Shown here one piece after another: positions 6,906 to 23,133 of a stretch of 64,000 bases of DNA. Where the stretch lies: the NCBI GenBank assembly GCA_048937405.1, contig JBHLNF010000001.1, forward strand, positions 192,001 to 256,000, read 5' to 3'. A model generated the notes under the pieces. It did no database searches and was not told where the DNA came from. It saw only the letters and a program-made list of their open reading frames with translations. This stretch comes from Promethearchaeota archaeon (lineage in GTDB: Archaea > Asgardarchaeota > Lokiarchaeia > Sigyniarchaeales > SOKP01). Positions within the stretch are counted from its first letter, which is position 1. Every line of letters starts with the position of its first letter. Position numbers and translations under genes: made by a program.

Positions 6906-6930
6906 TAAAGTTTAAAATCAAGTGAAAAAA

Positions 6931-7524
6931 ATGTCAAGTAAAACAAGATCGAAAATATCATCGGCTCTTTCAAAAGAATTTGAAGAAAAATGGAAAAATC
7001 CAATGAAAAAACCATATTTAGAAAAGCTAGTTTTAAATATAGGGGTTGGAGTTGGAGGGGAAGAGTTAGAGAAAGCTGTTAATGTTTTAGAAACAATTAC
7101 AGACCAAAAAGCAATTAAGACTACATCAAAAAAAAATGTGAAAGAATTTAATTTAAGAATAGGACGACCCATTGGTACGAAAGTAACTATTAGGGGTCAA
7201 GCTGCTGAGAAATTACTTAAAAGATTACTAATTGTTAATAATAATAAAATATTAAGAAAAAGTTTTGATAATTATGGTAATTTTGGTTTTGGAATAACCG
7301 AGCACATTTCTATTCCCGGTATTGAATATGATAATGCAATTGGGATATGGGGTTTGGATTGTGTAGGAAGAGTAGTTAGACCCGGAATGAGAGTAAAATC
7401 TAGACGAAAAGCTCGGACTAAAGTTCCAAAACATCATTATGTCTCACGACAAGAAACCCAATATTTTTTAGAACAAAATTTTGGAGTTGAAATTGTAGAA
7501 AAATTAGAATTAGAATATTTTTAA
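6931..7524 (+). CDS. rpl5: 50S ribosomal protein uL5
   Basis: NPMKKPYLEKLVLNIGVG, GNFGFGITEHI; ATG at 6931 preferred over GTG at 6922. Confidence 0.97.
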   Translation: MSSKTRSKISSALSKEFEEKWKNPMKKPYLEKLVLNIGVGVGGEELEKAVNVLETITDQKAIKTTSKKNVKEFNLRIGRPIGTKVTIRGQAAEKLLKRLLIVNNNKILRKSFDNYGNFGFGITEHISIPGIEYDNAIGIWGLDCVGRVVRPGMRVKSRRKARTKVPKHHYVSRQETQYFLEQNFGVEIVEKLELEYF

Positions 7525-7543
7525 TGAGTTTAGGTGAAATAAA

Positions 7544-7693: not shown

Positions 7694-7713
7694 TAATTAG
7701 AATAAAAAAAAGT

Positions 7714-7869
7714 GTGAATATCTATGACAAATACCATAGCAGATGCTTGTTGTGCCCTTAAAAATGCAGAAAGAGCACGTAAAAAGGAAGTTATTATTAG
7801 CCCTGCTTCTAAGGTTCTTCAACAAATTCTTCGAATATTCCAAAGACAAGCATATATTGGAGAATTCGA
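7714..7869 (+). repeat. Direct repeat copy 1 (rps8 SD plus 5' end), attL-like
   Basis: Matches 22740-22895; 3 mismatches in 146 coding nt (ACA/CCA, CTT/CTC, GGA/GGC) plus 2 in the spacer. Confidence 0.95.
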
Positions 7870-7885
7870 AGTCTGTTTATTATAA
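7724..7885 (+). pseudogene. rps8: Truncated 5' copy of rps8 (49 native codons plus VCLL-stop); left junction of the island
   Basis: MTNTIADACCALKNAERARKKEVIISPASKVLQQILRIFQRQAYIGEFE, then diverges into island sequence. Confidence 0.93.
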
Positions 7886-8245
7886 ATATTTTAAAACTAA
7901 ATTTCTAAACTCCTGTACTTTTATAGGTTTTGATATATATTGATTAAAACCAGATGACATAATACGTTCCTTATCTCCTTTCATTGCAAAAGAAGTTACA
8001 GCAATTATTGGTATATCTTTGAATTTTTCGATTTTTCTTAAATTTGAACAAATTTCTGTACCGTTCATTTCTGGTAATTGAATGTCTAGAATAATTAAAT
8101 CTGGATTACCTGATTTGATTAATTCAAATCCTAAATCACCTCTAGTTTCTTCAAAAATTTCAATATCGGGTATTAAATTTAAAATTGCTTTAAATAGCTT
8201 CATATTTTTTTCATTATCCTCAATAACATACACACTTTTTTTCAT
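7880..8245 (-). CDS. Single-domain response regulator (CheY/DivK-like receiver)
   Basis: IEDN, LIILDIQLPEMNG, AVTS, YISKP. Confidence 0.93.
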   Translation of the reverse strand: MKKSVYVIEDNEKNMKLFKAILNLIPDIEIFEETRGDLGFELIKSGNPDLIILDIQLPEMNGTEICSNLRKIEKFKDIPIIAVTSFAMKGDKERIMSSGFNQYISKPIKVQEFRNLVLKYL

Positions 8246-8401
8246 AAATCATTACCTACTTTTTTATTGAAACATAAAGAGAATTACGTGAATAATTCTT
8301 TTAAGGAAATTTTCACCTATGACTTCTAGATAAATCATTTTAGCTAAGATATATAAATTTTTAGAAATCTAAAATTGAAATAGAAGAATTGCAAATTGAT
8401 T

Positions 8402-9949
8402 TTAAGGACAAAATTTTAATTTTAGTTCTTGAGCTATATTAGCCATTTTATTTAGTTCTTCATAATCTTTTTCAATTATTGATTTCATGATATCAACCTT
8501 TAACTTTTTAATTTTTTCAAGAGTAATAGAAAATTCTTTATTAATATCCTCATATAATTTGTCTATGTTGCTATAAAGAAGTTGAGCTTGATTTTTATCA
8601 ATAATCTCAGAATTAATTATCTTTCTTTGATAAAAAGTATTTAATTCTTCTAACCAATTCCTTCCAATTTCTCCTATTGGTAGTAGATCATCGATTTTTC
8701 CTGTATTTAGCCCCATTTCAAATTTATCCTTATATTCATCGAATAAATTCCTGAAATAATTGTTAATTTTATTTTCAATGGCTTCTAAGTTAATATTAGG
8801 ATTCATAAAAAGAGTTACAGTATAATTATTATAACTAAAAATATGCATTTTTAAATTACTTCCTCTCAAACCAAAACCGGTTAAATCCTGAATATTTAGT
8901 TCCAAAGAAAATTTCTCCAACGCACTTATAAACATTGGAATCAATTCAAGATCAATTGGAATTATACTATCATCATTTGGAACACTTTGAGAAATATAAT
9001 CTTTAATAGCATTATCATATAATTCAAAATTTAATAACGATAATCCATCTTTATCTGATATTATTGCTCCTATGATCCCTGAATTTTTTTCTTCAGTCGG
9101 AATTTCTAATAAAGGAAAATTTCTCTCATCTTTATCATTTGAGACGGAGAAAAAATTCTCCAAAACTTTTTTGTATATTACCTTACCTTTATTCGTTAAA
9201 CTTAGAAGTGATTCATTTTTTACCTCTTTTACTTCAATATGACCTTTATTAATTAAATTTTCAACTAAATAATTTACCAATTTCTCAGGACGATTCAATT
9301 TTTCATAAAGAATATCTTTAGCAATAATTACATTTTTATCAATTTGATGTATGATTTTCAATGATTCATCAACCATATTCAATAATAATCCTTCATTAGG
9401 TAAGACATCTTGAAGGCAAGTTTTCATAATTTCAATGAAATATGAAAAAGTCTGATGAAAGTATTCCTTTTTCAAACTGGTAAATCGAAAATTTATTAGA
9501 GTATCATTTGAGAAACTATTCTTAATTATCGATCTAATTTCTCTGATTTTCTTTTCACTTACCAAATCTATTTTATGTAATAATACAAAAATAAAGGTGG
9601 ATGGAGTAAGATCATTTCTTAAATCAATAACTTTTCTTACAAAATTAATGATCTCATCATTATTAGATTTAATGTCAATTACTACCAATATTAGTTTAGT
9701 GTCATAAAAAATTCTTTTTTCATCTGTTTCAAGCCATCGTTTATTTTCTTGACCAGCTAGATCAAATATACCAATATCTTCATTTAAACCTGGTAATCGC
9801 AATATTAATGATTCTTCTCCATATGTTGGGTCTAAAGCATATTCTAGTAACTTAGATGAACTTTCTCCTTCAAAAAAGACTTTACGAAGGGTTGTTTTCC
9901 CAGCATTTGGTGGTCCTACAAATATAATTTTTTTTCCTATTTTGATCAC
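8402..9949 (-). CDS. Rag/Gtr-like GTPase fused to winged-helix and C-terminal roadblock/longin-like domain
   Basis: GPPNAGKT, PTYG, DLAGQ, HKID, FTSL; LVENLINKGHI...LSLTNKG wHTH; IIGAIISDKDGLSLL...FISALEKFS. Confidence 0.75.
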   Translation of the reverse strand: MIKIGKKIIFVGPPNAGKTTLRKVFFEGESSSKLLEYALDPTYGEESLILRLPGLNEDIGIFDLAGQENKRWLETDEKRIFYDTKLILVVIDIKSNNDEIINFVRKVIDLRNDLTPSTFIFVLLHKIDLVSEKKIREIRSIIKNSFSNDTLINFRFTSLKKEYFHQTFSYFIEIMKTCLQDVLPNEGLLLNMVDESLKIIHQIDKNVIIAKDILYEKLNRPEKLVNYLVENLINKGHIEVKEVKNESLLSLTNKGKVIYKKVLENFFSVSNDKDERNFPLLEIPTEEKNSGIIGAIISDKDGLSLLNFELYDNAIKDYISQSVPNDDSIIPIDLELIPMFISALEKFSLELNIQDLTGFGLRGSNLKMHIFSYNNYTVTLFMNPNINLEAIENKINNYFRNLFDEYKDKFEMGLNTGKIDDLLPIGEIGRNWLEELNTFYQRKIINSEIIDKNQAQLLYSNIDKLYEDINKEFSITLEKIKKLKVDIMKSIIEKDYEELNKMANIAQELKLKFCP

Positions 9950-11260
9950 TTAAATTTTTTTATTGAAGTAATATATATTTTTTAATTTTTGTTTGATTTG
10001 ACCAATTGTCCAAATTAATTTATTTGCACTAAGAGTTTCTGAAAAACAAACTAAATTTTTAAGATTAAATTTTTGATAATTCAAACTGTTCATAATAATA
10101 TTCAAATTAGAACTTGAGAGAATTAAATGTTCAATTCTATCATTTTTAGATACATTTTCGAAAGTTTTATTTAATTGGGTTATAAGTTTATGCGAATGAT
10201 TGATAATTATCGTGTTAAAATCTTTCGTAATAGATTGTGCTACTATACTATCATTTAAATTAGTAATAAAAAACATAGTTTTTGAAAAATTTGATATCAT
10301 ACTATCCAACAGGTTCTTTAAGTGAAAAGTATATTTTGAAAAATTGCTTAATAATTCATAAAATGCATTATAAAGGCTATAAATTAAATTTGGATAAATA
10401 CTTGTATAATAAATAGACACATCAAATTTCATTTTTAAAATGTTTGTAAGGTCTTTAAGATACTCTTTTCTAGATCCTTTCTCTATTAAATCAATTTTAT
10501 GGATGAAAAGAATTAGTTGAGCAGTATAGGAGTTATCTTGTAAAATTTCAATGACTTGTTTGATATCCTCCATGATTAATTGTTCATTTGTAATCCATGT
10601 TGGATAATCAAAGAGATATACTATAAAGTCAGTATTCTCAAATGCTAGAATTTGGTCATTATTTTTATTATTTTCCAGAAGTTGACTGAGTTCTTGTCCA
10701 GAAGAATCAAATAAACCTACCTTCAAATCTAACCATGAATAAACTGATGGCGATATTCCTCGAGTCGGTTCTAAAGGATTTGTTATTAAATTTATTGGAT
10801 CATATCCTTCAAAGACAATTTTCTTAATAGTTGTTTTTCCTGTACCTGGTCTACCAATTATCAATATCTTTTTAGCTGAAGACTTAATAAAAAAAGTATC
10901 AATTTTCTCTTGGAAATATTTTTTTTTATCATCTTCAGATTTTCCTAAGAATTTTCTGGCAAATTTAATAAATTCAGATTTTTGATTATATAAATTAATC
11001 TTTTCTTTTTCTTCCAGTATAATAAGAATTATTTCATATCCAATCTCAGAAACTTTTGATTTATCACAATAACTAAGTATAATATTATCTTTATATGTAA
11101 TTTCAATTAACTCACCCTTCTTAAAATCATCTTCATAGGAATGAGTCATATATATTTTATTGATTAATTCATCCGTTAGTTTTAATTCTAAAGGATATTT
11201 CAGCTCAAGCGTAGCACCCATTTTAGTATCCCAACTAAAAAACGCTAAACCTTTAACCAT
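9950..11260 (-). CDS. Longin/uDENN-like N-terminus plus Rag/Gtr-like GTPase plus roadblock-like C-terminus
   Basis: FSWDTKMGATLELKYP; GRPGTGKT, PTRG, DSSGQ, HKID, YTSI. Confidence 0.75.
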   Translation of the reverse strand: MVKGLAFFSWDTKMGATLELKYPLELKLTDELINKIYMTHSYEDDFKKGELIEITYKDNIILSYCDKSKVSEIGYEIILIILEEKEKINLYNQKSEFIKFARKFLGKSEDDKKKYFQEKIDTFFIKSSAKKILIIGRPGTGKTTIKKIVFEGYDPINLITNPLEPTRGISPSVYSWLDLKVGLFDSSGQELSQLLENNKNNDQILAFENTDFIVYLFDYPTWITNEQLIMEDIKQVIEILQDNSYTAQLILFIHKIDLIEKGSRKEYLKDLTNILKMKFDVSIYYTSIYPNLIYSLYNAFYELLSNFSKYTFHLKNLLDSMISNFSKTMFFITNLNDSIVAQSITKDFNTIIINHSHKLITQLNKTFENVSKNDRIEHLILSSSNLNIIMNSLNYQKFNLKNLVCFSETLSANKLIWTIGQIKQKLKNIYYFNKKI

Positions 11261-11266
11261 TAAATC

Positions 11267-13411
11267 TCAACTCTCTATTTTTTCTTTTAATTTTTTAGTT
11301 ATAGTAAAAGTAAATGTTGATCCTGTACCTAATACGCTATTAAATGTTATACTTCCTCCATGTAATTCTACAAGCCTTTTGGTTAATGATAATCCAAGTC
11401 CGGTCCCAGGAACAGAGCGTACATATGTAGAATCTACTCTTTTAAATTCCTTGAAGATCAGAGAAAAATCTTTTTGATCTATTCCAATACCTGTATCATT
11501 TACTTTAAAAACCCATTGACCATATTTTTCTTGTATTTTTACTGTAATTTGACCTTCAAGAGTAAATTTAATAGCATTACTTAAGAGATTCAATAAAATT
11601 TCTTTGAATCGAATTGGATCTGCATAAATATATTTTTTTTCATCTAATCCTTTAATCTTTAATTTAAGGTTCTTTCTATTATACATAGGCTTTAAGCTTG
11701 ATTTAATTTGTTCAAATATGTTATTTAATGAAACCTTTTGAATATTCAAGTTTATTTGTCCAGATTCTATTTTTGATATATCTAAAATATGTTTAATCAT
11801 ATCAAATTGATGTTCTGCAGAATTTTTTATATCGGTAACAAATTCCTTTTGTTCATCATTTATTTGACCATAAACACCCTCTAATAATAAATCAGAAAAT
11901 CCAATAATAGCATTTAAAGGAGTCCTTAATTCATGTGACATTGTAGCCATGAATTCTGTTTTAAACTGAGAAGACTTTACTATTTGATCCATGTATAATT
12001 TCTGCTGTTCAAGGGTTTTATTTAACTCTTTAGTTCTATCCTGAACTTTTTGTTCTAATTCATCTTTAAATTTCTCTTCTAAAAGTTCTGAGGTCTTTTT
12101 TTCAGTAATATCTTTAAAAATCAGTTGAAATAGAGTTCCAGGCTTCTGTTTTATAATAGAAGCTTGAATTTCAACCCAAATACTTTCTCCATCCTGTTTT
12201 TTTAACTCAACCTCAACAGGTTTTGGAAAATTATTTTCAAAATTGGCATGAAAAATTTTCTTAAAATAAAGCTTAACTTCAAAAGGAAAGAAGTTGATAA
12301 GCTCATCTATTGATTTTTGAATAAAATAATCCCTTTCATAACCAAATATTTTGTCTGTAGTAAAATTAGCATCAACAACAATTCCATTAAAGTTTATTAT
12401 TAATATGGCATTTGGTGAGTTATCAAATAAATCTTTGTATCTTTTTTCAACAAAAATTTGATCAGTTATATCCCTCGAAATAACAAGAATTCTCACTTGC
12501 CCATCTTTATTTATAAAATTTTTAAAATTACATTCATGCCATAGCCAATGGCCCTCTTTATGTTTAATTCGCAATTTTATAGTACTTTTTTCACTTTTTA
12601 ATGGATCTTTTAATAATTTTGATATCTTTCCTTTATCTTTTGGATGAAGAAAATCCAGATATGATTTTTCCAATATCTCTTTCTTTTTGTATCCTAGCAG
12701 TTTAAATGCTATTTTTTCATTAAAATATTTAACTATTAATTTCAAACTAAGAATTATGATTAAATCATTTATATTTTCTTCAATGCGAATATGTTTCTCT
12801 TCTGATTCTTTCAACATTTTTTTTATTATATAATGTTCTATACCATTTCCAATAATTTGTGAAGATAATCGTAAAATTGATAACTGTGTCTCATTCGACT
12901 CTTTATGTATTGAATCATTTAAATATCCAATAAATCCTGCTAAGTCTTTTCTAATATATAGTGGAAACACCAATAGAGATCTGATATTATTAAGATTTAA
13001 TAACCTTTTTGTAGCTTTTGCTTCATCAGTTAAACTAGAAATATCATAAATATTGATAATTTTTCCTTTTCTAAGTTGATTATTCCACCATGGAAATTTT
13101 AAAAGCCATGAATTGTTAAAGTATTCAAATAACGGTTTAATTCCTTTTGCACACCATTCATACGTATTTTTTAAATTAATCTCATTAAAATTAATAATAT
13201 ATAAAACAACCCGACTCGCTTTGTTTAAAAACCCAATATCACGTAATGTAGCATTAATAATATCATTAATCTCGATATCTCCAAAGAATCGAGATGAAAT
13301 TGTTGAAATCAAAGTTTCTAAATCTGACCAAAATTGAACCAGACATTTTACATTTTGTTTTACATCATTTTTTTCTCCAAAAATATTTTCTTTGTTGTGA
13401 ATTCCACTCAT
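11267..13411 (-). CDS. GAF-PAS-PAS sensor histidine kinase
   Basis: NTYEWCAKG (GAF), FLHPKD (PAS), MSHELRTPLNAIIGF, NLLSNAIKFT, DTGIGI, GTGLGL. Confidence 0.95.
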   Translation of the reverse strand: MSGIHNKENIFGEKNDVKQNVKCLVQFWSDLETLISTISSRFFGDIEINDIINATLRDIGFLNKASRVVLYIINFNEINLKNTYEWCAKGIKPLFEYFNNSWLLKFPWWNNQLRKGKIINIYDISSLTDEAKATKRLLNLNNIRSLLVFPLYIRKDLAGFIGYLNDSIHKESNETQLSILRLSSQIIGNGIEHYIIKKMLKESEEKHIRIEENINDLIIILSLKLIVKYFNEKIAFKLLGYKKKEILEKSYLDFLHPKDKGKISKLLKDPLKSEKSTIKLRIKHKEGHWLWHECNFKNFINKDGQVRILVISRDITDQIFVEKRYKDLFDNSPNAILIINFNGIVVDANFTTDKIFGYERDYFIQKSIDELINFFPFEVKLYFKKIFHANFENNFPKPVEVELKKQDGESIWVEIQASIIKQKPGTLFQLIFKDITEKKTSELLEEKFKDELEQKVQDRTKELNKTLEQQKLYMDQIVKSSQFKTEFMATMSHELRTPLNAIIGFSDLLLEGVYGQINDEQKEFVTDIKNSAEHQFDMIKHILDISKIESGQINLNIQKVSLNNIFEQIKSSLKPMYNRKNLKLKIKGLDEKKYIYADPIRFKEILLNLLSNAIKFTLEGQITVKIQEKYGQWVFKVNDTGIGIDQKDFSLIFKEFKRVDSTYVRSVPGTGLGLSLTKRLVELHGGSITFNSVLGTGSTFTFTITKKLKEKIES

Positions 13412-13476
13412 AATTTAACTTTAATTTAATCTATCTTATACATTTTTGATACAAATAATATCTATTCAATAAAAGA

Positions 13477-14166
13477 TCATTCACAATGATCTTTGGGAAA
13501 TTGTTCTTCAAGAGCTTTCATAATATCGTTGCAAGAATCCAAGATCATGTTAATGTAATTCATAATCTCAGGTCTAGATATTTTTCTATTTATATTTTGA
13601 TCTATTATTAACTCACCAAATCCTCGAATTGTGTTAATTCCACTCCGAATCTGCATATTTATGGATTCTAAAGGTAGGATTTCATCTTTTTGCATATAAA
13701 TCTTATTTATTTCTTTAATAAAATTCTCAAATTCATTTTTATCATCAGACAAAATTTTATTACGTTTAATTTTATGAAAAATCATTCCAATTTTTTTGAA
13801 ATGAAGTATTGGTATTATAGAATAGCCAACATCCCGAAGTAGTATTATAGCATATAATTGTTTTCCTCCCCTTGCTGATAAATCCTCTATTTCGATCTTA
13901 TAGATTTGGGCATAAAAATTATTAAAATCTAATATAACAAATTGATTTTTAGTATTTAGCGCGTCTCTTAAAAGATTTTTTACAAATTCTTCATTTTTCA
14001 GAGGAATTTGAGAATATAGGGCTCTTGGACCTAATGTATGATCATATTTTCCAATAATCATAATAAAAGGATATTTTTCTAAATTATGCTTAAGAGTTGA
14101 ATAAATATCAAGATTTTCCTCTTCACGTTTATTTTTAAATTGGATATCTTTTATAATTTCTTTCAT
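13477..14166 (-). CDS. Longin/uDENN-like domain fused to a degenerate (His-less) HisKA-like helical hairpin
   Basis: GKYDHTLGPRALYSQIP and ARGG..YAIILL; C-terminal NMQIRSGINTIRGFGELI aligns with SHELRTPLNAIIGFSDLL. Confidence 0.6.
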   Translation of the reverse strand: MKEIIKDIQFKNKREEENLDIYSTLKHNLEKYPFIMIIGKYDHTLGPRALYSQIPLKNEEFVKNLLRDALNTKNQFVILDFNNFYAQIYKIEIEDLSARGGKQLYAIILLRDVGYSIIPILHFKKIGMIFHKIKRNKILSDDKNEFENFIKEINKIYMQKDEILPLESINMQIRSGINTIRGFGELIIDQNINRKISRPEIMNYINMILDSCNDIMKALEEQFPKDHCE

Positions 14167-14375
14167 TTTTTTTCCATGTAAATTAAATGATATATACTAA
14201 ATCTTAAGAATAAAAAAATCCTTATTGAAAGAAGTTTTTTATCCTTAGAATGATTTCTAAATTAATTGGAAAAGAATTGATATTTAATCTTTACTATTTA
14301 ATAAAGTGTATGAGTTATTAGGAAAAAAAAGAAATTTTTGTACAAATTTATATAATAGAAGCATATTAATAATTT

Positions 14376-15860
14376 ATGTCGGAATCCGCAAATACTATTA
14401 TAAAATATTTCTGCGATCGCTTTTTAGATATTGAATACTATCCTTCTAATTTGAAGGCAATTTTGGATTTTGATTTGCATAAAATAAAAAATATTAAAAA
14501 AGAAGATTTGCTGAAATTCCAGAAATTTAATATAAAAACCTTTCGAGATCTATGTAATTTAGATCAATCTGATTATGATCGGTTGATAAATCATTCATTT
14601 ATAGAAAAAAATCTACTAAATAATATTATTATTGCAGCAACTTTAATTGCTAATTCATGGAATAAAAGAAGTATTTACTTGAATAAACCAAAAATGAAAG
14701 TTGTTGTGGCTGGTCTTGATTTTGCAGGTAAAACATCTTTAATTAATAGATTGATTCACGATTATAACTACAATGATATGAATAATATTGAGCCAACAAT
14801 AGGGACAAATATAGAAGAATATCACTCAAAATGGCTGAATTTAATATTATGGGACTTAGGTGGCCAAAAGGATAATATAAATGAATATTTAGAATCTCCA
14901 GAAAAATTTTTTGTACAATTAGATGTTTTAATTTTTGTCATTGATGCCCAAGATGATAATAGATATAATGAAGCGGTTCGTTATTTGAATGATTTAATTG
15001 AAATATTTACATTTTTAAATGAAAATCCATATATCCTTGTATTGATAAATAAAGTAGATTCTGATATAGCAGAGGATCCAGATTTTCAAATTAAACTTGA
15101 ATATTTAATGGATAAAATAACTAATATCTTTATTAATAGTCAAAAATCATGGAATTTTGAGCTCATACCTACAAGTATCTATAATTTTTATTCTTCAGAA
15201 CCCGAGATTGCTAAAAGCATTAAAAAAATCTTTACAAAAGAAAAATCAGAAACACATTTGGATACTATAACGGAAATTAATGAGAAATTAGAAAGAATTT
15301 TAAATATAAACCTAGAATTAATGGATAAAATAGTATCTGATTTTTCCAAAATAAAACAAACCTTATTTAGATTTACACACTCTAATGTTTCTCAATCACT
15401 ATTTAACATTCCAATTCAGGATGTTCCCTGCAAGAATAGTTTTGATAAACAAAAAACAAATCAGAAAGATAGGACAAAGAAAAAAGAATCGAAAAAAAAA
15501 GAATTAAAAAAGAGAGAAAGAATAAAAAAAGTTATAGGTCCCCCGAAACGTTTAGAATCTATTATATCACCAAATGAAATTACACAAAATATAAAAAATA
15601 ATCATAAAATTACTGAAGAAAAATTGAAAGAAATAAAAAACGATTTAACCCCAACTCCTAAATCGTCTGATTTACGATCAACCCCACCAATAGCTCCTAA
15701 AAAAGGTTATTTAAGTAAAGCTGATCTTAAACCTCCACCCCCGCCACCAAAAATTGCAATTAAAAATGATACTTCATTACAAGGGAATAGAAAACAAATT
15801 ATTTCAGAATTAAAGGAATTATTTATAAGAAGAGGGTTAGTCCCTCATAAAAATATTTAA
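14376..15860 (+). CDS. Arf-like GTPase with N-terminal helical (HhH-like) domain and C-terminal Lys/Pro-rich tail
   Basis: GLDFAGKT, PTIG, WDLGGQ, NKVD; PPPPPP followed by RKQIISELKELF. Confidence 0.8.
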   Translation: MSESANTIIKYFCDRFLDIEYYPSNLKAILDFDLHKIKNIKKEDLLKFQKFNIKTFRDLCNLDQSDYDRLINHSFIEKNLLNNIIIAATLIANSWNKRSIYLNKPKMKVVVAGLDFAGKTSLINRLIHDYNYNDMNNIEPTIGTNIEEYHSKWLNLILWDLGGQKDNINEYLESPEKFFVQLDVLIFVIDAQDDNRYNEAVRYLNDLIEIFTFLNENPYILVLINKVDSDIAEDPDFQIKLEYLMDKITNIFINSQKSWNFELIPTSIYNFYSSEPEIAKSIKKIFTKEKSETHLDTITEINEKLERILNINLELMDKIVSDFSKIKQTLFRFTHSNVSQSLFNIPIQDVPCKNSFDKQKTNQKDRTKKKESKKKELKKRERIKKVIGPPKRLESIISPNEITQNIKNNHKITEEKLKEIKNDLTPTPKSSDLRSTPPIAPKKGYLSKADLKPPPPPPKIAIKNDTSLQGNRKQIISELKELFIRRGLVPHKNI

Positions 15861-16400
15861 TTATCGTTTAGAACAAATGAAAAATATTATAATTCGTATG
15901 AATTGTCTTTTTAATATTCAATTTTATCGGATTATAAAATTTATATTCCGCTCTTTTCCCTAACTTATTAGAATGTGATGTTCTCCATCATATTATTTTA
16001 TTTGTATTTATTTAAAGTGTGTTTTATATTCCAAGATAAAATTTTTTCTTAAGATCTATTTTAAACTTATATCTAAATCAGTTTGAATGAAATAAATCTT
16101 GAAATCATTAAATTAAGGACTTTAGCAAGATAAAAAGATAATTTAATTCAAACTTATCAAATCTTATAATAAAGTGAATTTTTTATCTTTTACTTCTTAT
16201 GATTTCTACTACTATTCACAAATATGGAAGCGAAATATAAAGAATTACTTTAATACCTGTAATAAATCAAGTTTCTAACTAGTAAATTCAACTTTTTTTA
16301 CTAGTAATTTGTGATTTTTTAATGGACTATGCATTTCGAAAAAATTAAAAATATGAAATTTATTGCTTTTATGGAGTAATTAATAGAACATTATTTTATT

Positions 16401-18746
16401 ATGCGGAAAAAAATTCAATCATTAGAAAAATTCAAAATAAAAAATAGACCTTTTAATCATAATATTTTAGAGGTTATAGTAGAAATAAATCTAGATGGAA
16501 AGTTTATTTGTTTTAGTCCACAGGTTTATGATCTTTTCGGTTTTCGACCAAAAAAGTTAATCAAGCTAAATGAACAAAATTTCATCCATCCAGAAGATTT
16601 ATCACTTTATAGAGAAGTAATTGATAAGGTAAAAAACTTTAAAGAAACATTTATTGTAGATTTAAGAGTGAAGCACAATAAGGGATATTATGTCCCAATT
16701 TCATTAAAGGTTAATTTAATCTTACCTAATAATACAAAAAAAATAATTGGTATAATAAGAGATATTTCAGATATCAAAATTTCCAAGTTAAAATTTAAAG
16801 AATCTAAAGAGAAATATCTAAACATTATCAATAATATGATGGAAGGATATTTTGAAATTGATCTTAAGGGAAATTTTTTATATGCTAATGTGTATTTCTG
16901 TAAAACATTAAATTATTCTAAGGAAGAATTAATAGGAAAAAATTATCATTTTATTTATGAAAAAAAGACATGCGAACGTTTATTTAATATATTCACCCAA
17001 ATATATAAGACAGGGATACCTCATCCTCCAGAAGAAGTAATTAAAGTGGTAACAAATAAGGGTAAACTATTATATGTTGAAGGATCTATTCATTTATTAT
17101 ATGATTCTGAAGGATATAAGGTTGGATTTTATGGCTTAGCTCATGATACAACAAAAGAGATAAAAAACAATCAAAAATTAAAAGAATTCGAATTGAAATA
17201 TAGCAATATTCTCGAAAATATGATGGAAGGGTATTATGAAACTGATCTTAGGGGAAATTTTATATATGTTAATGCTGAGTATTGCAAAATTTTGGGATAT
17301 TCAAAAAAAGAATTATTAGGAAAGGATTATAGAACCTTTTATAATGTAGAGGGATTGAGTAATTTACAGAGTATTTTTACCAAAATATATAAAACTGGGA
17401 TACCTCACGCTCCAACAGGATTAGTAAAATTGGTGACAAAGAAAGGTAAACTTATATATTTTGAAGGTCCTGTTGATTTAATATATAGTTCGAAAGGAAA
17501 AAAGATAGGATTTTATGGGCTTATTCGTGATATAACAAAAAGAAAAATTGCGGAACAAAAATTAAAAGAGTCCGAAGAGAAATATCGAAGCATACTCGAA
17601 AATATGATGGAAGGATATTATGAAGTGGATTTAGAAAACAATATCATTTTTTTTAATGATTCTTTTAATAAGATATTAGGACATCCAAAAGAGAAATTAT
17701 CAAATGAAAAATTTGATTGGTTTTTAAGTTCTCATAGTAAAAAGAGATTTTCCTTACTTTTTAATAATTTATTAGAGAATAAAATGTCATTTTTAATTTC
17801 CCAGTTTGAAATAATAAATCAAAAAGGAGAAATTATAAATGTCGAAACTTCAATATATCAAAAACAAGATATGAAAGGAAATATAATCGGATTCGGAGGA
17901 TTATTGCGGGACATTTCTGAAAGGATGCAAATCGAAGAAATGAGAGAAGAATTTACTGAAGAACTCCAAAATCAAGTAGTTCAAAGAACTCAGGAACTAA
18001 ATGAAGCATTAGAAAAGCAAGAATTATACATTCAAGAGATATTGAAGTCTTCTCGTTTTAAAAGCGAATTTATGTCTGTGATGTCCCATGAGCTGAGGAC
18101 ACCTATGAATGCCATCATAGGTTTTTCTGATCTTTTGATGGAGGGGGATTTTGGTCAACTTAATGAAAATCAAAAAGACTTCTTATATGATATAAAAGGG
18201 TCTGCTAACCACTTACTAAATATAATTAATCATATACTTGATATCTCGAAAATAGAGTCAGGTAATTTGAATTTGAAGATAAAAAAGATTCAACTGGATA
18301 TAGTTATAAAACAAGTCAAAGGAACACTTAAAACTTTATTTGATAATAAGAATTTAACATTTAAGGTGATTGGGTTGAAAAAGAATAAGGTTATCAATGT
18401 AGATCCTATAAGGTTTAAAGAGATTCTTTTCAACCTATTAAGCAACGCAATTAAATTCACCTTAAAAGGAATTATTACTTTGAAAATTTCTGAAGATGAG
18501 ATGCTATGGAAATTTGACGTGATTGATACAGGTATTGGTATAGCTAAGGAAAATTTAGGGTTTATTTTTATGGATTTTAGAAGAATTGATGATCCCCATG
18601 TAAATTCAACAGAAGGAACTGGACTTGGCCTTTCTGTTACAAAAAGACTAGTCGAGCTCCATGGTGGAAGTATCAGTTTTACAAGCGAATTTGGGAAAGG
18701 ATCTACATTTTCCTTTACAATTCCTAAAGATTTAAAAGAAGGGTAA
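16401..18746 (+). CDS. Multi-PAS (4x) sensor histidine kinase
   Basis: FIHPED; three ENMMEGY-type PAS repeats; MSHELRTPMNA, NLLSNAIKFT, GTGLGL. Confidence 0.95.
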   Translation: MRKKIQSLEKFKIKNRPFNHNILEVIVEINLDGKFICFSPQVYDLFGFRPKKLIKLNEQNFIHPEDLSLYREVIDKVKNFKETFIVDLRVKHNKGYYVPISLKVNLILPNNTKKIIGIIRDISDIKISKLKFKESKEKYLNIINNMMEGYFEIDLKGNFLYANVYFCKTLNYSKEELIGKNYHFIYEKKTCERLFNIFTQIYKTGIPHPPEEVIKVVTNKGKLLYVEGSIHLLYDSEGYKVGFYGLAHDTTKEIKNNQKLKEFELKYSNILENMMEGYYETDLRGNFIYVNAEYCKILGYSKKELLGKDYRTFYNVEGLSNLQSIFTKIYKTGIPHAPTGLVKLVTKKGKLIYFEGPVDLIYSSKGKKIGFYGLIRDITKRKIAEQKLKESEEKYRSILENMMEGYYEVDLENNIIFFNDSFNKILGHPKEKLSNEKFDWFLSSHSKKRFSLLFNNLLENKMSFLISQFEIINQKGEIINVETSIYQKQDMKGNIIGFGGLLRDISERMQIEEMREEFTEELQNQVVQRTQELNEALEKQELYIQEILKSSRFKSEFMSVMSHELRTPMNAIIGFSDLLMEGDFGQLNENQKDFLYDIKGSANHLLNIINHILDISKIESGNLNLKIKKIQLDIVIKQVKGTLKTLFDNKNLTFKVIGLKKNKVINVDPIRFKEILFNLLSNAIKFTLKGIITLKISEDEMLWKFDVIDTGIGIAKENLGFIFMDFRRIDDPHVNSTEGTGLGLSVTKRLVELHGGSISFTSEFGKGSTFSFTIPKDLKEG
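16811..17960 (+). repeat. Tandem PAS-domain duplication with 384-bp period
   Basis: gaaatat...aatatgatggaagg recurs at 16811, 17195 and 17579. Confidence 0.75.
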
Positions 18747-18750
18747 AGAT

Positions 18751-19131
18751 TTGATAAAAAAAATATTTATCATTGATGATTATGAGAGAAATTTAAGGTT
18801 ATATAAAGCGACATTTAATGGTGCCCCTAATTTAGATATCATTACGGAGAGAGATGGGATAAAAGGTTTAGAGATGTTAAAAGAGAGTAATCCAGATCTG
18901 ATTATTTTAGACTATAAACTAACAAATATAACTGGTGTTGAGATATGCAAAGAGTTAAGAAAAATAGAAAAATTCAAAGATATTCCAATAATTATGGTTT
19001 CTTCAACCCCTATTGAAAAAGATGTTGATAGAGCAACCTATTTTAAGGAAGCTGGTTTTAATTTATATTTCTCAAAACCAATAAACATTAAAAAATTTAG
19101 AGAAATCATAAAAAATCTATTATTCAAATAA
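18751..19131 (+). CDS. Single-domain response regulator
   Basis: IIDD, LIILDYKL, VSS, FSKP; 4 nt after the histidine kinase. Confidence 0.93.
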   Translation: MIKKIFIIDDYERNLRLYKATFNGAPNLDIITERDGIKGLEMLKESNPDLIILDYKLTNITGVEICKELRKIEKFKDIPIIMVSSTPIEKDVDRATYFKEAGFNLYFSKPINIKKFREIIKNLLFK

Positions 19132-19376
19132 TCATCTAATAAAACAATACTAGATTAAGTAGAACTATACTTTATAGATTTAAGTTTTTATTCCTTTGTT
19201 CTATAATTAGATTTTACTTTATAATTTTTTAAATATTTATTACCATATTATTTCTTTAAATAATTTAAAATTTCTGAGATTTGTAATTATTATGAAAGCT
19301 CTAATTAGATATGAATAATCTAACTGGTGGATTCTTTCTGTATCATTGTTTAATATTTCGAATTATGACATCTTCA

Positions 19377-20114
19377 TTAGGCAAGAATGTAAGGTTTTTC
19401 GTTTATCTCAGGAATCAAAATTATGAAATTACTACCCTTTTTATAATCCCCTTTCACTTTATCTTCCACCCAGATATAACCATTATATTTCTTTATTAAT
19501 TTTTTAACAAGAGTTAGTCCAAAACCCATTCCATTCAAACATTCTCGGATTTCATACTCTTTTTGAAAAATAGATTTTTTCCTTGCATTGGTAATACCAA
19601 CTCCGTTATCAATAAATTCGATTTTAACAAAAGAAGTATTATTCAGAATTATTTTTGAGACGTTAATTAATATTTGAATATTTGAGTTTTTATTGTGATA
19701 TATTGCATTAAATATAATATTCTCAAATACATTCTGCAATAATTTATCTCCTTGAACATATAATCCATTAAAATATGATTTTCGAATGCTTGAATAGTTG
19801 AAATTAATTTTTATATTATTTTCAGGAAATGATGATTCAATATATTCTATGGATGTCTTTAATAAATGGAGAACATCAATAGGTTGAAGAGAATTGTTAG
19901 AATCATCAAAATTAGTTACATTTTTCACATTTGAAATTATTTGAATTCCCCTCATCACCTGTTTATTTATAATATTCATACAAATTCTCATTTGTTCAGG
20001 TTTGGTTAAAGAAAAAGAGCAAAGTTGTAGAGAAGACTGAATAATATGAAGAATAGTCCCAAAATCATGAATTAAAATATCTCCATATGTATCAAATACA
20101 TTTTTTTTCTCTAT
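19377..20114 (-). CDS. Sensor-less histidine kinase (HisKA-like plus HATPase); extends upstream of the ORF call to an apparent ATA start
   Basis: H-box ILIHDFGTIL lies in frame upstream of 19991; ENIIFNAIYH, DNGVGI, GMGFGL; GGTGA 6 nt before ATA 20114, in-frame TGA further upstream. Confidence 0.8.
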   Translation of the reverse strand: MEKKNVFDTYGDILIHDFGTILHIIQSSLQLCSFSLTKPEQMRICMNIINKQVMRGIQIISNVKNVTNFDDSNNSLQPIDVLHLLKTSIEYIESSFPENNIKINFNYSSIRKSYFNGLYVQGDKLLQNVFENIIFNAIYHNKNSNIQILINVSKIILNNTSFVKIEFIDNGVGITNARKKSIFQKEYEIRECLNGMGFGLTLVKKLIKKYNGYIWVEDKVKGDYKKGSNFIILIPEINEKPYILA

Positions 20115-20328
20115 TGTTTGTCACCAATTATGATGCTAATTATTTTTATTGAATTTTTTTTATCTTTCTTATAAAGATTTAATTGTATTTTATGGTAAAA
20201 TTTGGATTACAATACTATAAAGATTGACATTTCTATAAAAAAACTTATATTTAAATCTTTTTTTTCCAAAAAGGTGTATTACAATAAAGATCATTTAATT
20301 TTTGAAATGAGTTTTTCATCTGTAAATT

Positions 20329-20730
20329 TTAACTTATAATACTATTATTTATTTTAATGTCCTTCCTTTTTAATATTTTTAAAACAGTTTTAAATAATTT
20401 TTCTAAAGAAAATGGTTTATCTAAAAAATATTTTGCTCCTTTGGATAAAGCTTCAATCTTAATTTTATTATCTGCACTAGCAAATATTATTTTTGCTGTA
20501 TTTTCAATCTTTAAGATTTCTTCAAGGATTTGAATACCGTTTTTATTTGGCATTCGATAATCCAAAATTATAATATCAGGTTTTTTATATAAATTCTTGA
20601 ATAATGAAATGGCTTCTTCTCCATCACCTGTTAGACCTAATATCTTATAACCCTTACTTTCTAGAGCCATTTTGTAAAACCTTCTTAATTGGTTATCATC
20701 CTCTGCTATAAAGATTGATGACATATTCAT
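20329..20730 (-). CDS. Single-domain response regulator
   Basis: AEDD, IILDYRMPNKNG, FASA, LDKPF. Confidence 0.93.
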   Translation of the reverse strand: MNMSSIFIAEDDNQLRRFYKMALESKGYKILGLTGDGEEAISLFKNLYKKPDIIILDYRMPNKNGIQILEEILKIENTAKIIFASADNKIKIEALSKGAKYFLDKPFSLEKLFKTVLKILKRKDIKINNSIIS

Positions 20731-22007
20731 TGTACCTCCGGAAGTTTAAGAATAAATTTACTCCCTTTGGTATAATCCTCTGGAATCTTGTTTTCAACCC
20801 AAATTTTAGCATTAAATATATCTAAAATACTTTTGACAAGCGATAATCCTAATCCTAATCCACTAAGGCTTTTATTCATCCCAAAATCCCTAGTAAAAAG
20901 ACTTTGTTTCCTTGAATCGGGAATACCTACTCCATTGTCAATAAACTCGACCTTAAAAAATTTTTTTCCCTCTTCTTGAATGTGAGAGATCTTGATTAAT
21001 ATCTCAACAATTGAATTATCATTATGAATAACAGCATTAAGGAGAATATTTTCAAATATATCAAATATGAATTTATTTGCCACAATGAAAAAATTTTGTA
21101 GCTTGGTTTCAATTAGAATTTTCATTTCCCTTTTCTCTGTCCTTTTTTTGAGGTTATTAATTGCTTCTTCTAATATTTCTTTAAAATCTAGTTTTTCTAA
21201 AAATGTTTCAGATTCTAAAATTATGCTAAATTTTCTAACATTCCTAATTAAGTGTGTTCCCCTGTCAATTTGTTCTTTAATCAATTTTATTGATTCGTTT
21301 TCAGTTAAATCTCCAGTAATTTTTAAGTCTTGTTCAAATAATTCTAAACCCATTAATATGTTTTGAAGAATGTTATTAATATCATGAACGAAAAGATCCT
21401 TATAAAAACATTCTCTATTATACGCTTCTTGATATTTTTCAATAGATTTCTCGAAATTGGATACAGAAAACCATGTTATGAATGCAATAAGTACATAAAT
21501 GTTTAATCCAATAAAATTAGGAAAGAATCCATTGATAAAGCAAATAAGTAAATTGACAAAAATAATGAAAAATGTCATAATAAAACTCATATATGGGGTT
21601 ATTAAAAATCCAGCCATAATAATAGGTAACACAAGCTGAAGAAGAGATCTGCCTAAGACAAGTTCATAGGGAGTATCTGAGAGAAAAATAAGTATAGTTA
21701 CTAGTACTAGAAAAGTGCTAATGGCTAATTTATTAGACAAATAGTTATTTACCAAGAAAATAACAATACCTCCGAAAAAAGCAAATGTGGATAAACCTAA
21801 TATCAAAATTGTCTCTTTATTTCCTCCAATAGGAGATCCAATGATGAAGAAACTAAGATATATTAAAATAATCAAACCATCTGCAGATTCTATTCCAAGA
21901 AGTAAAATATTGAGAACTTTTTTTTTTCTCATTTCCTCTAGATCTTTTTTATGAATCAAAAAAAAATAATTTAGAATTCTCTTTATAAATGAACTCACCA
22001 TTTGCAC
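20727..22007 (-). CDS. Membrane-bound sensor histidine kinase
   Basis: About 6 TM helices; LFVHDINNILQ, ENILLNAVIH, DNGVGI, GLGLGL. Confidence 0.92.
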   Translation of the reverse strand: MQMVSSFIKRILNYFFLIHKKDLEEMRKKKVLNILLLGIESADGLIILIYLSFFIIGSPIGGNKETILILGLSTFAFFGGIVIFLVNNYLSNKLAISTFLVLVTILIFLSDTPYELVLGRSLLQLVLPIIMAGFLITPYMSFIMTFFIIFVNLLICFINGFFPNFIGLNIYVLIAFITWFSVSNFEKSIEKYQEAYNRECFYKDLFVHDINNILQNILMGLELFEQDLKITGDLTENESIKLIKEQIDRGTHLIRNVRKFSIILESETFLEKLDFKEILEEAINNLKKRTEKREMKILIETKLQNFFIVANKFIFDIFENILLNAVIHNDNSIVEILIKISHIQEEGKKFFKVEFIDNGVGIPDSRKQSLFTRDFGMNKSLSGLGLGLSLVKSILDIFNAKIWVENKIPEDYTKGSKFILKLPEVQ

Positions 22008-22739
22008 CCTTAACTAAAAAACAAGAATGATTATAGAATAATAGAATTAATATTTAAATTTAGCCATATTTGTCAGGAATAATTAGCAAACAAATAAATA
22101 CAACTCTTCTCAAATTTCAAGATTGTTATTAATTAACTTATTTCTTCCTATTTTTGTCTAAAAAATAATTTTAGATAATTTATAATAATATCTTCAGTTT
22201 TTAAGCTTTTTAAGAGTAAAGGAAGATTAAATAAGAATCTTGGATTAGTATCAATATATTAGACAAGTTAATAAACATTTTTGGTTATAATAAGAATAGA
22301 AGAGAAATTATATAAAATAAAATTTGAGTTAACATTGGATTTCGCCCTCTATTAACCTTAAAGTAGGTTATTCTCCTCCTCACATTTTAAACTCAAGTTT
22401 TTTCTTCCCTTCTCCTCAAGTTTTAAGATAAGGTTGTTAAGTAGAGATAAATCCTAATATGACTCTTTCAATGTTTAGATCCTTGTTTCTAGGTCAAGCG
22501 CAATCAAATTTTTATTACTGGAAAGAAAAAGCAAAAGAAGATAATTAATTTTTTCTAATTAAATAATTTTTAAGTTTTATGGTTTTATTTTAGATTTCAA
22601 TATCAATTAATAAAATTAAAATTTAATCCATTACTAATTAGAACAATACGGAGTAATGGATGGAAAAAACTAAAATAATAATTCTGGATATTGTTCCTGA
22701 TTTTATTAATTAAAATAAGATAAGAAATTTTAGGAAAGA

Positions 22740-22895
22740 GTGAATAATTATGCCAAATACCATAGCAGATGCTTGTTGTGCCCTCAAAAATGCAGAAAGA
22801 GCACGTAAAAAGGAAGTTATTATTAGCCCTGCTTCTAAGGTTCTTCAACAAATTCTTCGAATATTCCAAAGACAAGCATATATTGGCGAATTCGA
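22740..22895 (+). repeat. Direct repeat copy 2 (rps8 SD plus 5' end), attR-like
   Basis: Near-identical to 7714-7869. Confidence 0.95.
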
Positions 22896-23133
22896 GAGGT
22901 ATGATGACGGAAGGCAAGGAAAATTTAAGATAGCATTATTAGGTAAAATTAATGAGTGTGCAGGATTAATGAGATTAAATTATAAATTATCTCAATTTGA
23001 GATGTTAGAAAGAAAATTATTACCAGCTCCAGGATTAGGCATTATAATTTTTACAACAAATCAAGGTATAATGACGATGAGTGAAGCAGAAGAAAATCAT
23101 ATTGGTGGGCATACTTTATGTTATATTTATTAA
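22750..23133 (+). CDS. rps8: 30S ribosomal protein uS8 (intact copy)
   Basis: YIGEFERYDDGRQGK, LLGKINECA, TTNQGIMT, IGGHTLCYIY. Confidence 0.98.
   Translation: MPNTIADACCALKNAERARKKEVIISPASKVLQQILRIFQRQAYIGEFERYDDGRQGKFKIALLGKINECAGLMRLNYKLSQFEMLERKLLPAPGLGIIIFTTNQGIMTMSEAEENHIGGHTLCYIY

Follow-up and report, generated by a model that had tools for sequence, protein, structure and literature searches.

In this Asgard-type archaeon, a block of about 14.9 kb is inserted in the essential ribosomal gene rps8 at codon 49, and a duplication of the 5' end of the gene keeps it whole. The locus was analysed in a window of 64,000 nt (positions 192,001 to 256,000 of contig JBHLNF010000001.1; positions below are those of this window unless another contig is named) belonging to a metagenome bin of 29 contigs with 5.7% contamination (G000). 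The original prediction was that the SD and first 49 codons of rps8 are present twice about 15 kb apart, and the comparison returned a direct repeat of 161 nt with 96.3% identity (E 2e-71 within the genome), whose copies are spaced 15,026 nt start to start and span rps8 from -15 to +147, including the SD, the start codon and 49 codons. The upstream copy is indeed in its native position after rps14 and truncated, its ORF being composed of 49 uS8 codons followed by EVCLL and a stop, with a 6-nt overlap with the 3' end of RR1, the first gene of the block; this stub was also called as a gene in a second assembly. The downstream copy, as anticipated, opens an intact gene that runs on into rpl6 (full-length uS8 and then uL6 by Pfam), with 80–96% identity to its orthologues in the genus. 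The two copies differ at six positions, three of them in the spacer between SD and ATG (7713, 7721 and 7722) and three in the coding part, where the predicted T2P change (7727) and two synonymous changes (7759 and 7861) were recovered. These mismatches concentrate at the repeat ends and leave an identical core of 101 nt (P ~0.016 for a clean run of this length). Both ends of the repeat are sharp: local alignments of flank against flank, and of the flanks against the 3' ends of rps14 from 18 relatives, remain at the level of shuffled sequences, which rules out a decayed larger duplication. The rps14 frame itself opens past a stop at 7535–7537 and has no ATG, GTG or TTG start.

Table 1. Coordinates of the rps8 locus and of the inserted block in the window.
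Feature	Position	Strand	Basis and remarks
rpl5 (uL5)	6922..7524	+	Pfam Ribosomal_L5, L5_C; part of the native upstream cluster
rps14 (uS14), 49 codons	7544..7693	+	Gene call of the second assembly, weak Pfam S14 match; aligned with relatives
Upstream copy of the 161-nt repeat, native position	7709..7869	+	Within-genome comparison
Truncated rps8' ORF, 53 codons	7724..7885	+	Pfam Ribosomal_S8 positions 2-47 only, E 9e-11
Inserted block, 14,865 nt, GC 25.1%	7870..22734	.	Absent here in all relatives examined
Receiver-only response regulator RR1	7880..8245	-	Pfam Response_reg, E 9e-24
Two abutting Gtr1/RagA-like GTPase genes (515 and 436 aa)	8402..11260	-	Pfam Gtr1_RagA
PAS histidine kinase HK714, 714 aa	11267..13411	-	Pfam PAS, HisKA, HATPase_c
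229-aa protein	13477..14166	-	Weak folliculin/longin-like match PF11704, E 0.0015, below cut-off
Arf/Rag-like GTPase Arf494 with Pro-rich tail, 494 aa	14376..15860	+	Pfam Arf, Gtr1_RagA
4xPAS histidine kinase HK781 (781 aa) and receiver RR126 (126 aa)	16401..19131	+	Pfam
HATPase-only fragment (204 aa), receiver (133 aa) and membrane histidine kinase HK426 (426 aa)	19377..22007	-	Pfam
Non-coding spacer, 727 nt	22008..22734	.	Sequence
Downstream copy of the 161-nt repeat, present working rps8 5' end	22735..22895	+	Sequence comparison
Intact rps8 (uS8), 127 aa	22750..23133	+	Pfam PF00410 positions 2-126 of 126, 84.9 bits, E 6e-24
rpl6 (uL6), native cluster resumes	23156..23734	+	Pfam; synteny

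The inserted block is a low-GC outlier in the composition analysis. By Pfam, its 11 ORFs contain only two-component and Rag/Arf-like GTPase domains besides one sub-threshold folliculin-like match; the stop codon of RR1 lies 10 nt from the upstream junction (junction 1), and the Gtr1/RagA-like pair has orthologues in eight sister species (61–74% identity). The same search of the 11 ORFs gave no integrase, transposase or other recombinase, no excisionase, no replication gene and no Cas1, in agreement with the earlier remark that no integrase or transposase is visible. A tRNA scan and an Rfam scan of the block gave no matches, and terminal inverted repeats were not found, the inverted repeats of the block being its internal paralogues RR1/RR126 and HK714/HK781. 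A transposon, IS or casposon was rejected on the absence of transposase, Cas1 and terminal inverted repeats and on a duplication length that is not fixed between this and other loci of the genome. In the whole of G000, tyrosine recombinases (PF00589) are encoded only at C9:13802 and C28:148250 and PF00239 is represented by one broken resolvase on C10, all on contigs other than that of the rps8 locus.

Comparison within the genus indicates where the duplication and the block come from. The order L5-S14-S8-L6 is contiguous in 16 of the 18 same-genus genomes examined, and among 54 genomes of the genus two rps8 5' ends are present in G000 only. Both copies carry common changes that the nearest species do not have, which places the origin of the duplication within this lineage. 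Four relatives (G003, G005, G035 and G012) have the first part of the block (segment A, from RR1 through Arf494) in synteny at 55–79% amino acid identity, and in them it sits between orthologues of C17:176358-177302 and C17:177519-179066; these two loci are adjacent in G000, which means that the segment A site is empty there. The core of the second part (segment B, the HATPase fragment, receiver and HK426) encodes proteins with 86–91% amino acid identity to those of the closest species, G034, and from 18462 on the block is 91% identical in nucleotides to G034:C10 until this homology stops at 22179. In G034, segment B adjoins orthologues of C7:470994-481683, a site (C7:471k-type) that shows the ancestral adjacency in G000, as do at least 23 of 29 loci of the genus. 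The C17-type and the C7:471k-type sites both lack the final 555 nt of the block, and G000 harbors no second copy of the block, its best other matches being paralogues (64–76%). The block is evidently a mosaic of host-type signalling genes from two ordinary chromosomal sites, and as a unit with these ends it was not found elsewhere, its halves being at different sites in relatives. It had been proposed that a circular element carrying its own rps8 5' half integrated and restored the gene: the insertion, the restoration and possibly homologous recombination stand, whereas a discrete mobile element with an att site does not, since the halves lie at two sites in sister species. The accompanying view of a core operon as an unusual att site overstated the integrity of the ribosomal supercluster, which is already fragmented in the genus (between S4e and L5 in G034; after S17 and before S8 in G018) and is less inviolable than assumed.

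The best reading of the locus appears to be a recombinase-independent insertion-duplication, of Campbell type or by homology-facilitated illegitimate recombination, tentatively and with a little short of an even chance. Donor DNA in which the block lay beside an rps8 5' fragment, from a close relative or from a sister chromosome copy, would have joined the chromosome via this fragment, either as a circle through a single crossover (Campbell-type) or in linear form by homology-facilitated illegitimate recombination. The repeat would be as long as the shared homology, and the survivors would be only those events whose repeat includes the gene end and leaves the gene whole, so that such scars would be located at gene ends. 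The block would already have to adjoin rps8 upstream in the donor, which merely moves the first rearrangement back one step. The target is directly duplicated around the insert with sharp bounds, one copy truncated and one whole, as expected from such an event. At the five variant sites that could be polarised, the upstream copy is ancestral at four and the downstream copy derived at four; four derived changes in the intact copy against one in the stub would be expected if the working 5' end arrived with the donor, which is suggestive only, as the count is too small for significance. No donor-like tract of substitutions was found downstream of the repeat, G000-specific substitutions amounting to ~4–5% to the left and to the right of the block, without a step between the two. 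The clustering of mismatches at the repeat ends is not predicted by plain divergence between donor and recipient and is suggestive of gene conversion or of selection acting on the initiation region.

Homology-facilitated illegitimate recombination and insertion-duplication have been described (de Vries and Wackernagel, 2002; Prudhomme et al., 2002; Meier and Wackernagel, 2003; all as cited in PMC5361080), and the same logic has been proposed to account for the orphan 3' gene ends of Vibrio T6SS and Rhs/CDI arrays. The rps8 block shares with these cases an incoming DNA anchored by homology, a direct duplication that brackets the insert and leaves a truncated beside a complete gene copy, and the lack of a dedicated recombinase. 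Unlike them, since they are bacterial and tied to natural transformation or toxin loci, it concerns an Asgard-type archaeon, the 5' end of an essential ribosomal gene and a host-like signalling cargo, and neither donor nor intermediate has been seen.

Similar scars are present elsewhere in the genome. A scan of local repeats, covering G000, returned 77 direct against 8 inverted pairs. Of the direct pairs, 20 have one copy that lies outside any ORF, and in all 20 of them its partner touches an ORF end, in most cases the 3' one. There are about 20 other direct gene-end duplications, several of which bracket recombinase-free inserts (hisS, GH57, an oxidoreductase and uvrA). The hisS 3' end has an insert of 10.4 kb, hisS and pyrF being adjacent in relatives, and its duplication is absent from G006, G003 and G005; GH57 shows both 3'-end and 5'-end duplications, the oxidoreductase a 3'-end one, and the uvrA 3' end is also among the cases. 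The uvrA 5' repeat was not counted as a clean case, as a third inverted copy is present and it may be a dispersed intergenic repeat. The pair C7:336722/371567 was rejected as an island, the 35 kb between its copies carrying RadA, RPA and HerA, and three ~210-nt repeat pairs on C25 are mutually unrelated. The duplications thus recur at unrelated targets, with repeats that range from 95 to ~800 nt (161 nt at rps8) and ends without a common motif, which points to homology-dependent rather than site-specific joining; together with the lack of mobility genes, the ~20 similar scars fit a recombination accident better than a classical mobile element. That the genus routinely moves accessory blocks (signalling, surface, sugar, SIR2-TPR) to core-gene ends through insertion-duplication that is anchored by homology and needs no recombinase is conceivable, though on balance doubtful. 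If true, this route would operate often enough for ~20 scars to remain per genome and for even the ribosomal supercluster to be split, flanking repeats could make the insertions reversible, and the closest prokaryotic relatives of eukaryotes would have a distinct mode of genome flux that also supplies partial gene duplicates. The microcin H47 island of E. coli is lost by recombination between direct repeats (PMC3191183, PMC5426353); it resembles the rps8 block in being small, devoid of its own site-specific recombinase and bounded by direct repeats, but it is bacterial, its repeats are short and extragenic and its mobility was shown experimentally.

A duplicative insertion based on replication or repair within one genome (fork stalling and template switching, microhomology-mediated break-induced replication, or DNA captured between staggered breaks at a distance of 161 nt) is a possible but rather unlikely explanation. 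The nascent strand would leave rps8 at codon 49, copy the block and re-enter 161 nt back, and the repeat would be a long target-site duplication, identical at birth. Such an event agrees with two copies that are each other's nearest relatives, with sharp repeat boundaries and no homology outside them, with the varying repeat length of the other cases and with a mosaic block, which is typical of multi-step template switching; the mismatches around the start codon could then represent later adaptation of the new 5' end. However, copy-and-paste should leave its sources behind, and none is present in G000, where the best other matches are of 67–76% and both source-type sites are clean. Additionally, fewer changes have accumulated in the non-functional stub than in the working copy, contrary to the simple expectation.

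A defective or satellite island integrated site-specifically by a recombinase acting in trans, with the 161-nt repeats as attL and attR and a replacement 5' end brought in by the element, is improbable. The topology fits gene-end integration with restoration, the island is a compositional outlier, and the two tyrosine recombinases of G000 could in principle act in trans. Direct repeats resembling attL/attR do lie at the gene end (161 nt, 96%), but they are also expected from recombinase-free routes and are therefore not decisive. Among bacterial integrase islands, the streptococcal ICEs target rpsI, rplL and rpmG. The dusA islands of bacteria likewise integrate into a protein-coding gene, at its 5' end (PMC4482086). 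Like these islands, the rps8 block hits the end of a conserved gene, the displaced end is made good by the copy on the element's side and the insert is bordered by direct repeats; unlike it, they have their own integrase, contain a short defined core and travel in one piece. The rps8 block shares none of these three features: it carries no recombinase, excisionase or replication gene and its halves are separated in relatives. The other cases in G000, with unrelated targets, no common end motif and widely differing repeat lengths, also argue against this explanation. TTCGAAT, put forward earlier as a speculative T-loop-like integrase target, occurs at 7830–7836 and also, in minus-strand orientation, where the repeat ends (7864–7870), but 20 occurrences in the window against 14 +/- 4.6 expected are at chance level and give no signal. 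As for Asgard archaea, the Heimdallarchaeial aloposons are reportedly integrated mobile elements. The Atabeyarchaeia elements carry integrases or partition genes and an 11-bp att and have been seen both excised and circular (PMC11529989). The rps8 block is similar to the integrated elements of Asgard archaea as a low-GC, strain-variable block in the chromosome (1.3–40 kb among them), but it is without integrase, partition gene or 11-bp att and has instead a 161-nt duplication of a gene end.

Serial large rearrangements without insertion (tandem duplication and random loss, or overlapping inversions), which would make the stub the remnant of a lost duplicate, are very improbable. Breaks in the supercluster and in local synteny are many in the genus (G034, G018) and direct local duplications are common in G000, but the rps14 flank and the flank with the rest of rps8 are native and contiguous in relatives, so that a simple tandem duplication cannot yield the observed order. 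Moreover, the parts of the block come from two unlinked sites, of which the C7:471k-type is in its ancestral state in G000 and most genus loci, and a duplication of >250 kb followed by two clean deletions would be needed.

The insertion structure is real. Reads across both junctions had been proposed as a check, and contigs from independent runs bridge each: Logan contigs of runs X1 and X2 cross junction 1 (7831 to 10427 and 10718) and a contig of X4, from another study, crosses junction 2 (22333–22783). The depth of the block equals that of its flanks in four runs from two studies, and a second public assembly (GCA_048937415.1, contig of 125.6 kb) agrees in structure, differing by 1 SNP over 38 kb. 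These read data are k=31 contigs, which cannot bridge or phase the 101-nt identical core, so that the integrated and free-circle states are inseparable by sequence. No donor, circle or empty-site allele is seen; short joints with sides of 20–22 nt were counted as noise, and the JGI metagenome contigs, a collection without this population and uninformative either way, gave 0 matches to junction 1 or the empty site. An assembly artefact, in which an intact rps14-rps8 and a separate 15-kb circle or another strain bearing a single rps8 5' fragment were threaded through the 101-nt core, is scarcely credible: a partly contaminated metagenome bin, contigs that cannot phase variants on either side of the core and co-occurring related strains (variants in X3, whose S4e gene is ~5% diverged but parts of whose block are 0–1.4% diverged) would favor it, but the path is the same in two assemblies (in one of them within a 1.05-Mb contig), depth is equal across block and flanks, the copies differ at six sites and must be two real sequences, and a 15-kb circle without replication or partition gene is not maintainable at one copy per chromosome.

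An essential gene of the most conserved cluster of prokaryotes is split here by 15 kb and yet whole, which indicates how far the order of genes can be disrupted while function is retained. If the gene-end pattern holds against control genomes, it would point to a homology-driven shuffling of accessory genes in Asgard archaea that would bear on the growth and duplicate richness of their genomes; if it fails, the locus would be a well-documented but ordinary structural variant. The eight genes rps8-rpl6-rpl32e-rpl19e-rpl18-rps5-rpl30-rpl15 would be separated from their upstream promoter by 15 kb, half of it antisense, and would therefore have to use a promoter in the 727-nt spacer. In this spacer, the TATA-like TTTTATTAATTAAAATA at 22701–22717, 33–49 nt before the rps8 ATG, is a putative new promoter for rps8-rpl15.

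The sequence under study (the window, C7:192001-256000) comes from a 4.47-Mb genome bin of 29 contigs (G000), in which a 161-nt direct repeat with 96% identity encloses a 14,865-nt block inside the ribosomal gene rps8. The upstream copy, preceded by rpl5 and rps14 in native order, opens a 53-codon ORF (the stub) made of 49 uS8 codons and five foreign codons before a stop. The downstream copy forms the 5' end of an intact 127-aa uS8, after which uL6, L32e, L19e, uL18, uS5, uL30 and uL15 are found. Six mismatches separate the copies: three in the spacer between the Shine-Dalgarno sequence and the ATG (7713, 7721 and 7722), one that changes Thr2 to Pro (7727) and two synonymous (7759 and 7861). 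Similarity stops abruptly at either edge of the repeat, and its flanks align only at the level of shuffled sequence, both with each other and with the rps14 3' region of 18 relatives. The rps14 frame itself opens past a stop (7535-7537) without ATG, GTG or TTG; in a second public assembly (GCA_048937415.1) the gene call begins at ATA 7544, six nt past GGTGA.

Coordinates of the rps8 repeat, the block, related sites and other repeated gene ends (window positions unless a contig, C, or locus, L, is named; contigs are those of G000)
Feature	Location	Second copy or related site
Direct repeat	7709-7869	22735-22895
Stub (truncated rps8)	7724-7885	
Intact rps8	22750-23133	
Block	7870-22734	
Segment A	7870 to ~16000	
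Genes flanking segment A in relatives (orthologues)	C17:176358-177302	C17:177519-179066
Segment B	18462-22179	
Gap between 661-aa and 106-aa genes	C7:470949-471400	
Region orthologous to segment B neighbours	C7:470994-481683	
HK781 tandem units	16790-17714	
Non-coding stretch upstream of HK426	22153-22414	C28:326074-326327
Putative promoter element	22701-22717	
Ribosomal supercluster	2464-27001	
S19 ORF	2464-3039	
Start region of the rps14 frame	7533-7546	
hisS 3' end (L069)	C28:481691-481839	C28:492237-492385
GH57 3' end	C7:270733-270839	C7:277428-277533
GH57 5' end	C7:269583-270258	C7:265522-266198
1026-aa oxidoreductase 3' end	C19:186867-187167	C19:190960-191260
uvrA 3' end	C7:924765-925032	C7:929109-929376
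515-aa gene 3' end (sister species G003, C3)	L059:16215-16499	L059:18975-19259

All 11 ORFs of the block are signalling genes: three receiver-only response regulators, four histidine kinases (two with PAS arrays and one HATPase-only fragment), three Gtr1/RagA- or Arf-like GTPases and a 229-aa protein with only a sub-threshold folliculin-like match. No recombinase, tRNA, Rfam RNA or terminal inverted repeat was found in the block; the genome-wide total is two tyrosine recombinases plus a broken resolvase, none of them on C7, the contig that carries the block. The comparison of composition with the core that had been proposed earlier does set the block apart, mildly (25.1% GC compared to 28.9 ± 1.7% in random 15-kb pieces; tetranucleotide distance in the top 5%), and it is a mild outlier of the kind often seen in accessory regions. 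The 4xPAS histidine kinase HK781 contains three tandem 384-nt units (67–76% identity), which match its repeated PAS domains. Upstream of the membrane histidine kinase HK426 there is a non-coding stretch 74% identical to a second site in G000, and parts of it reappear at 77–78% identity beside kinase genes in two same-genus genomes (G043:C45 and G008:C68); it did not match Rfam, and its role might be that of a conserved leader, a promoter or a small RNA.

On sequence comparison, the block is a mosaic of host-type DNA. Segment A, from the receiver gene RR1 to the Arf/Rag-like GTPase gene Arf494, is a conserved syntenic module (55–79% aa identity) found in seven same-genus genomes (G003, G005, G035, G012, G008, G060 and G043). 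In the four species with enough flanking sequence, its neighbours are orthologues of two genes that adjoin in G000, 216 nt apart, and the site of segment A is therefore empty in G000. Segment B shows 91% nt identity to G034:C10 (L068), where it abuts orthologues of another region of G000 and nearby orthologous DNA is 84–87% identical. In G000 the corresponding gap, between 661-aa and 106-aa genes, is a plain adjacency, as it is at no fewer than 23 of 29 genus loci; the spot is variable, containing segment B in G034 and an unrelated insert of ~9 kb in G031:C44. The final 555 nt of the block matched neither relative. The two segments occupy different "flexible" sites in different species, and the block does not behave as a unit with fixed ends.

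The block is an insertion specific to the G000 lineage: S4e-L5-(S14)-S8-L6 is uninterrupted in 16 of 18 same-genus genomes, and among 54 genus genomes only G000 has two rps8 5' ends. Both copies have common changes that are missing from the nearest species (G034 at 94%; G001 and G043), which places the origin of the duplication within this lineage. With ~2 shared derived sites compared to five copy-specific ones, the event does not appear very recent, and an estimate by eye from the alignment, on very small numbers, would place it perhaps ~40% back along the terminal branch. Judging from gene order, the ribosomal supercluster is already loose and fragmented in the genus, which makes a break near rps8 less surprising than it would be in most prokaryotes. 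In the window the cluster begins at S19, after genes for PfkB and mannose-phosphate isomerase, without L3-L4-L23-L2 before it, and stops at L15 without SecY. Foreign genes split S4e from L5 in G034 (L056), and foreign DNA is found after S17 and directly before the rps8 Shine-Dalgarno sequence in G018 (L058 and L037). The L24-S4e-L5-S14 piece was not found in G018 (there together with L14) or G005. One G005 contig (of L041 and L040) begins at rps8 codon 33, and the S19 ORF of the window is readable from ATG 2464, which would give a ~74-residue acidic (Glu/Asp/Ser-rich) N-terminal extension before the conserved S19.

Regarding expression, transcription from the S19-S14 part would enter the stub and go on to read RR1, the GTPase genes and the PAS histidine kinase gene HK714 in antisense, and the eight distal ribosomal genes would need their own promoter. 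The 727-nt spacer contains a TATA-like TTTTATTAATTAAAATA located 33–49 nt before the ATG, just outside the repeat, which by motif match is a putative promoter element. The stub retains a Shine-Dalgarno sequence and start codon, and is called as a gene in the second assembly.

The rps8 variant possibly reflects a more general phenomenon. A megablast self-comparison of G000 and a more sensitive scan (local repeats of 90–900 nt, at least 72% identity, 1–40 kb apart; this genome only) gave 77 direct and 8 inverted local pairs. Among the 20 direct pairs with only one copy inside an ORF (minimum length 120 aa), that copy touches the ORF end in every case, ~13 at the 3' end and 4–5 at the 5' end. A decayed copy of the final ~150 nt of hisS (82–86% identity, with stop codons) lies 10.4 kb downstream, just before pyrF, beyond PASTA, glycosyltransferase and GH130 genes; in six relatives hisS and pyrF are adjacent or <1 kb apart. 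In three relatives the hisS 3' end is a contig end. The last 107 nt of a GH57 gene recur 6.6 kb downstream, across SIR2-TPR, kinase, receiver and Rag-like genes. Its first 219 codons are repeated upstream (81% nt identity) as a still open frame; an 882-aa FG-GAP gene separates this copy from GH57, which reproduces the rps8 arrangement. The 3' end of an oxidoreductase gene is repeated across a SIR2-TPR gene and that of uvrA 4 kb away (L071 and L072). In G003 a 440-aa PAS histidine kinase gene stands between two direct copies (285 nt, 80% identity) of the 3' end of a conserved 515-aa gene; this duplication borders the segment A orthologue. None of these hand-checked inserts contains a recombinase, and the repeat ends have no motif in common, their lengths ranging from 95 to ~800 nt. 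At the uvrA 5' end, a ~200-nt piece is present three times, once inverted, flanking a pyruvate-formate-lyase-like gene.

Between the native left and right flanks, a piece of the target stands on either side of the insert, the order expected if a single crossover had joined the chromosome to incoming DNA bearing that piece of rps8. The incoming DNA could have been circular (Campbell-type) or linear, anchored through homology at one end and joined illegitimately at the other (homology-facilitated illegitimate recombination, HFIR; see the references in PMC5361080). Such insertion-duplication would require no dedicated enzyme, and would account for variable repeat length and unrelated targets. Repeats would always include a gene end because neither copy would be whole after an event at an internal fragment, and 3' ends would predominate because a 5' event removes the gene's promoter. 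Of the derived changes, four are in the intact copy and one is in the stub; small as these numbers are, they agree with import of the working 5' end on the donor DNA. Against insertion-duplication, neither a donor or intermediate nor a donor tract downstream of the repeat was seen, and the mismatches are clustered at the repeat ends (P ~0.016), a hint that gene conversion, or selection acting on the initiation region, may have been at work. Chief among the rivals, and rather unlikely, is an accident of replication or repair inside a single genome, through template switching or staggered breaks. It explains why the two copies are sisters and further predicts a duplicate of the block, of which G000 has none. 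An integrase acting in trans is improbable, and serial large rearrangements are very improbable.

Ribosomal genes are known integration targets of bacterial integrase-bearing elements. For dusA islands, restoration of the 5' end is on record (PMC4482086). The Asgard integrated elements known so far carry an integrase and use an 11-bp att (PMC11529989), unlike the rps8 block with its lack of a recombinase. A limited literature search turned up no report on Asgard genomes with recombinase-free gene-end insertion-duplications.

The insertion in rps8, with its duplicated 5' end, is a real, well-supported structural variant. All checkable details of the duplication in the original prediction (two copies of the rps8 5' end, truncated upstream copy, intact downstream gene) were right, and each junction at which it proposed mapping of reads is spanned by sequence data, here Logan k=31 contigs of four public runs (X1–X4) placed on the window. 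The left junction is crossed into the block by X1 and X2 contigs, both beginning at 7831, exactly the first 31-mer that covers copy-specific base 7861; the right one is crossed by an X4 contig (22333 to 22783) from a different study. Depth over the block equals that of the ribosomal flanks in all four runs, and the 125.6-kb contig of the second assembly has an identical S19-to-L15 order with one SNP in 38 kb. The repeat has a 101-nt identical core across which k=31 contigs give no linkage and so do not phase variants, which leaves room for an artefact joining an intact chromosomal cluster and a free 15-kb circle; it is unlikely that a circle without a replication gene would stay at precisely one per chromosome in four samples, and this explanation is very improbable. 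In run X3, the sole contig over S4e (window 6175-6859) differs at 34 of 685 positions (~5%) and contigs over the block (window 9564-21927) at 0–1.4%, with similar depth, which hints that the block or parts of it may be common to more diverged strains.
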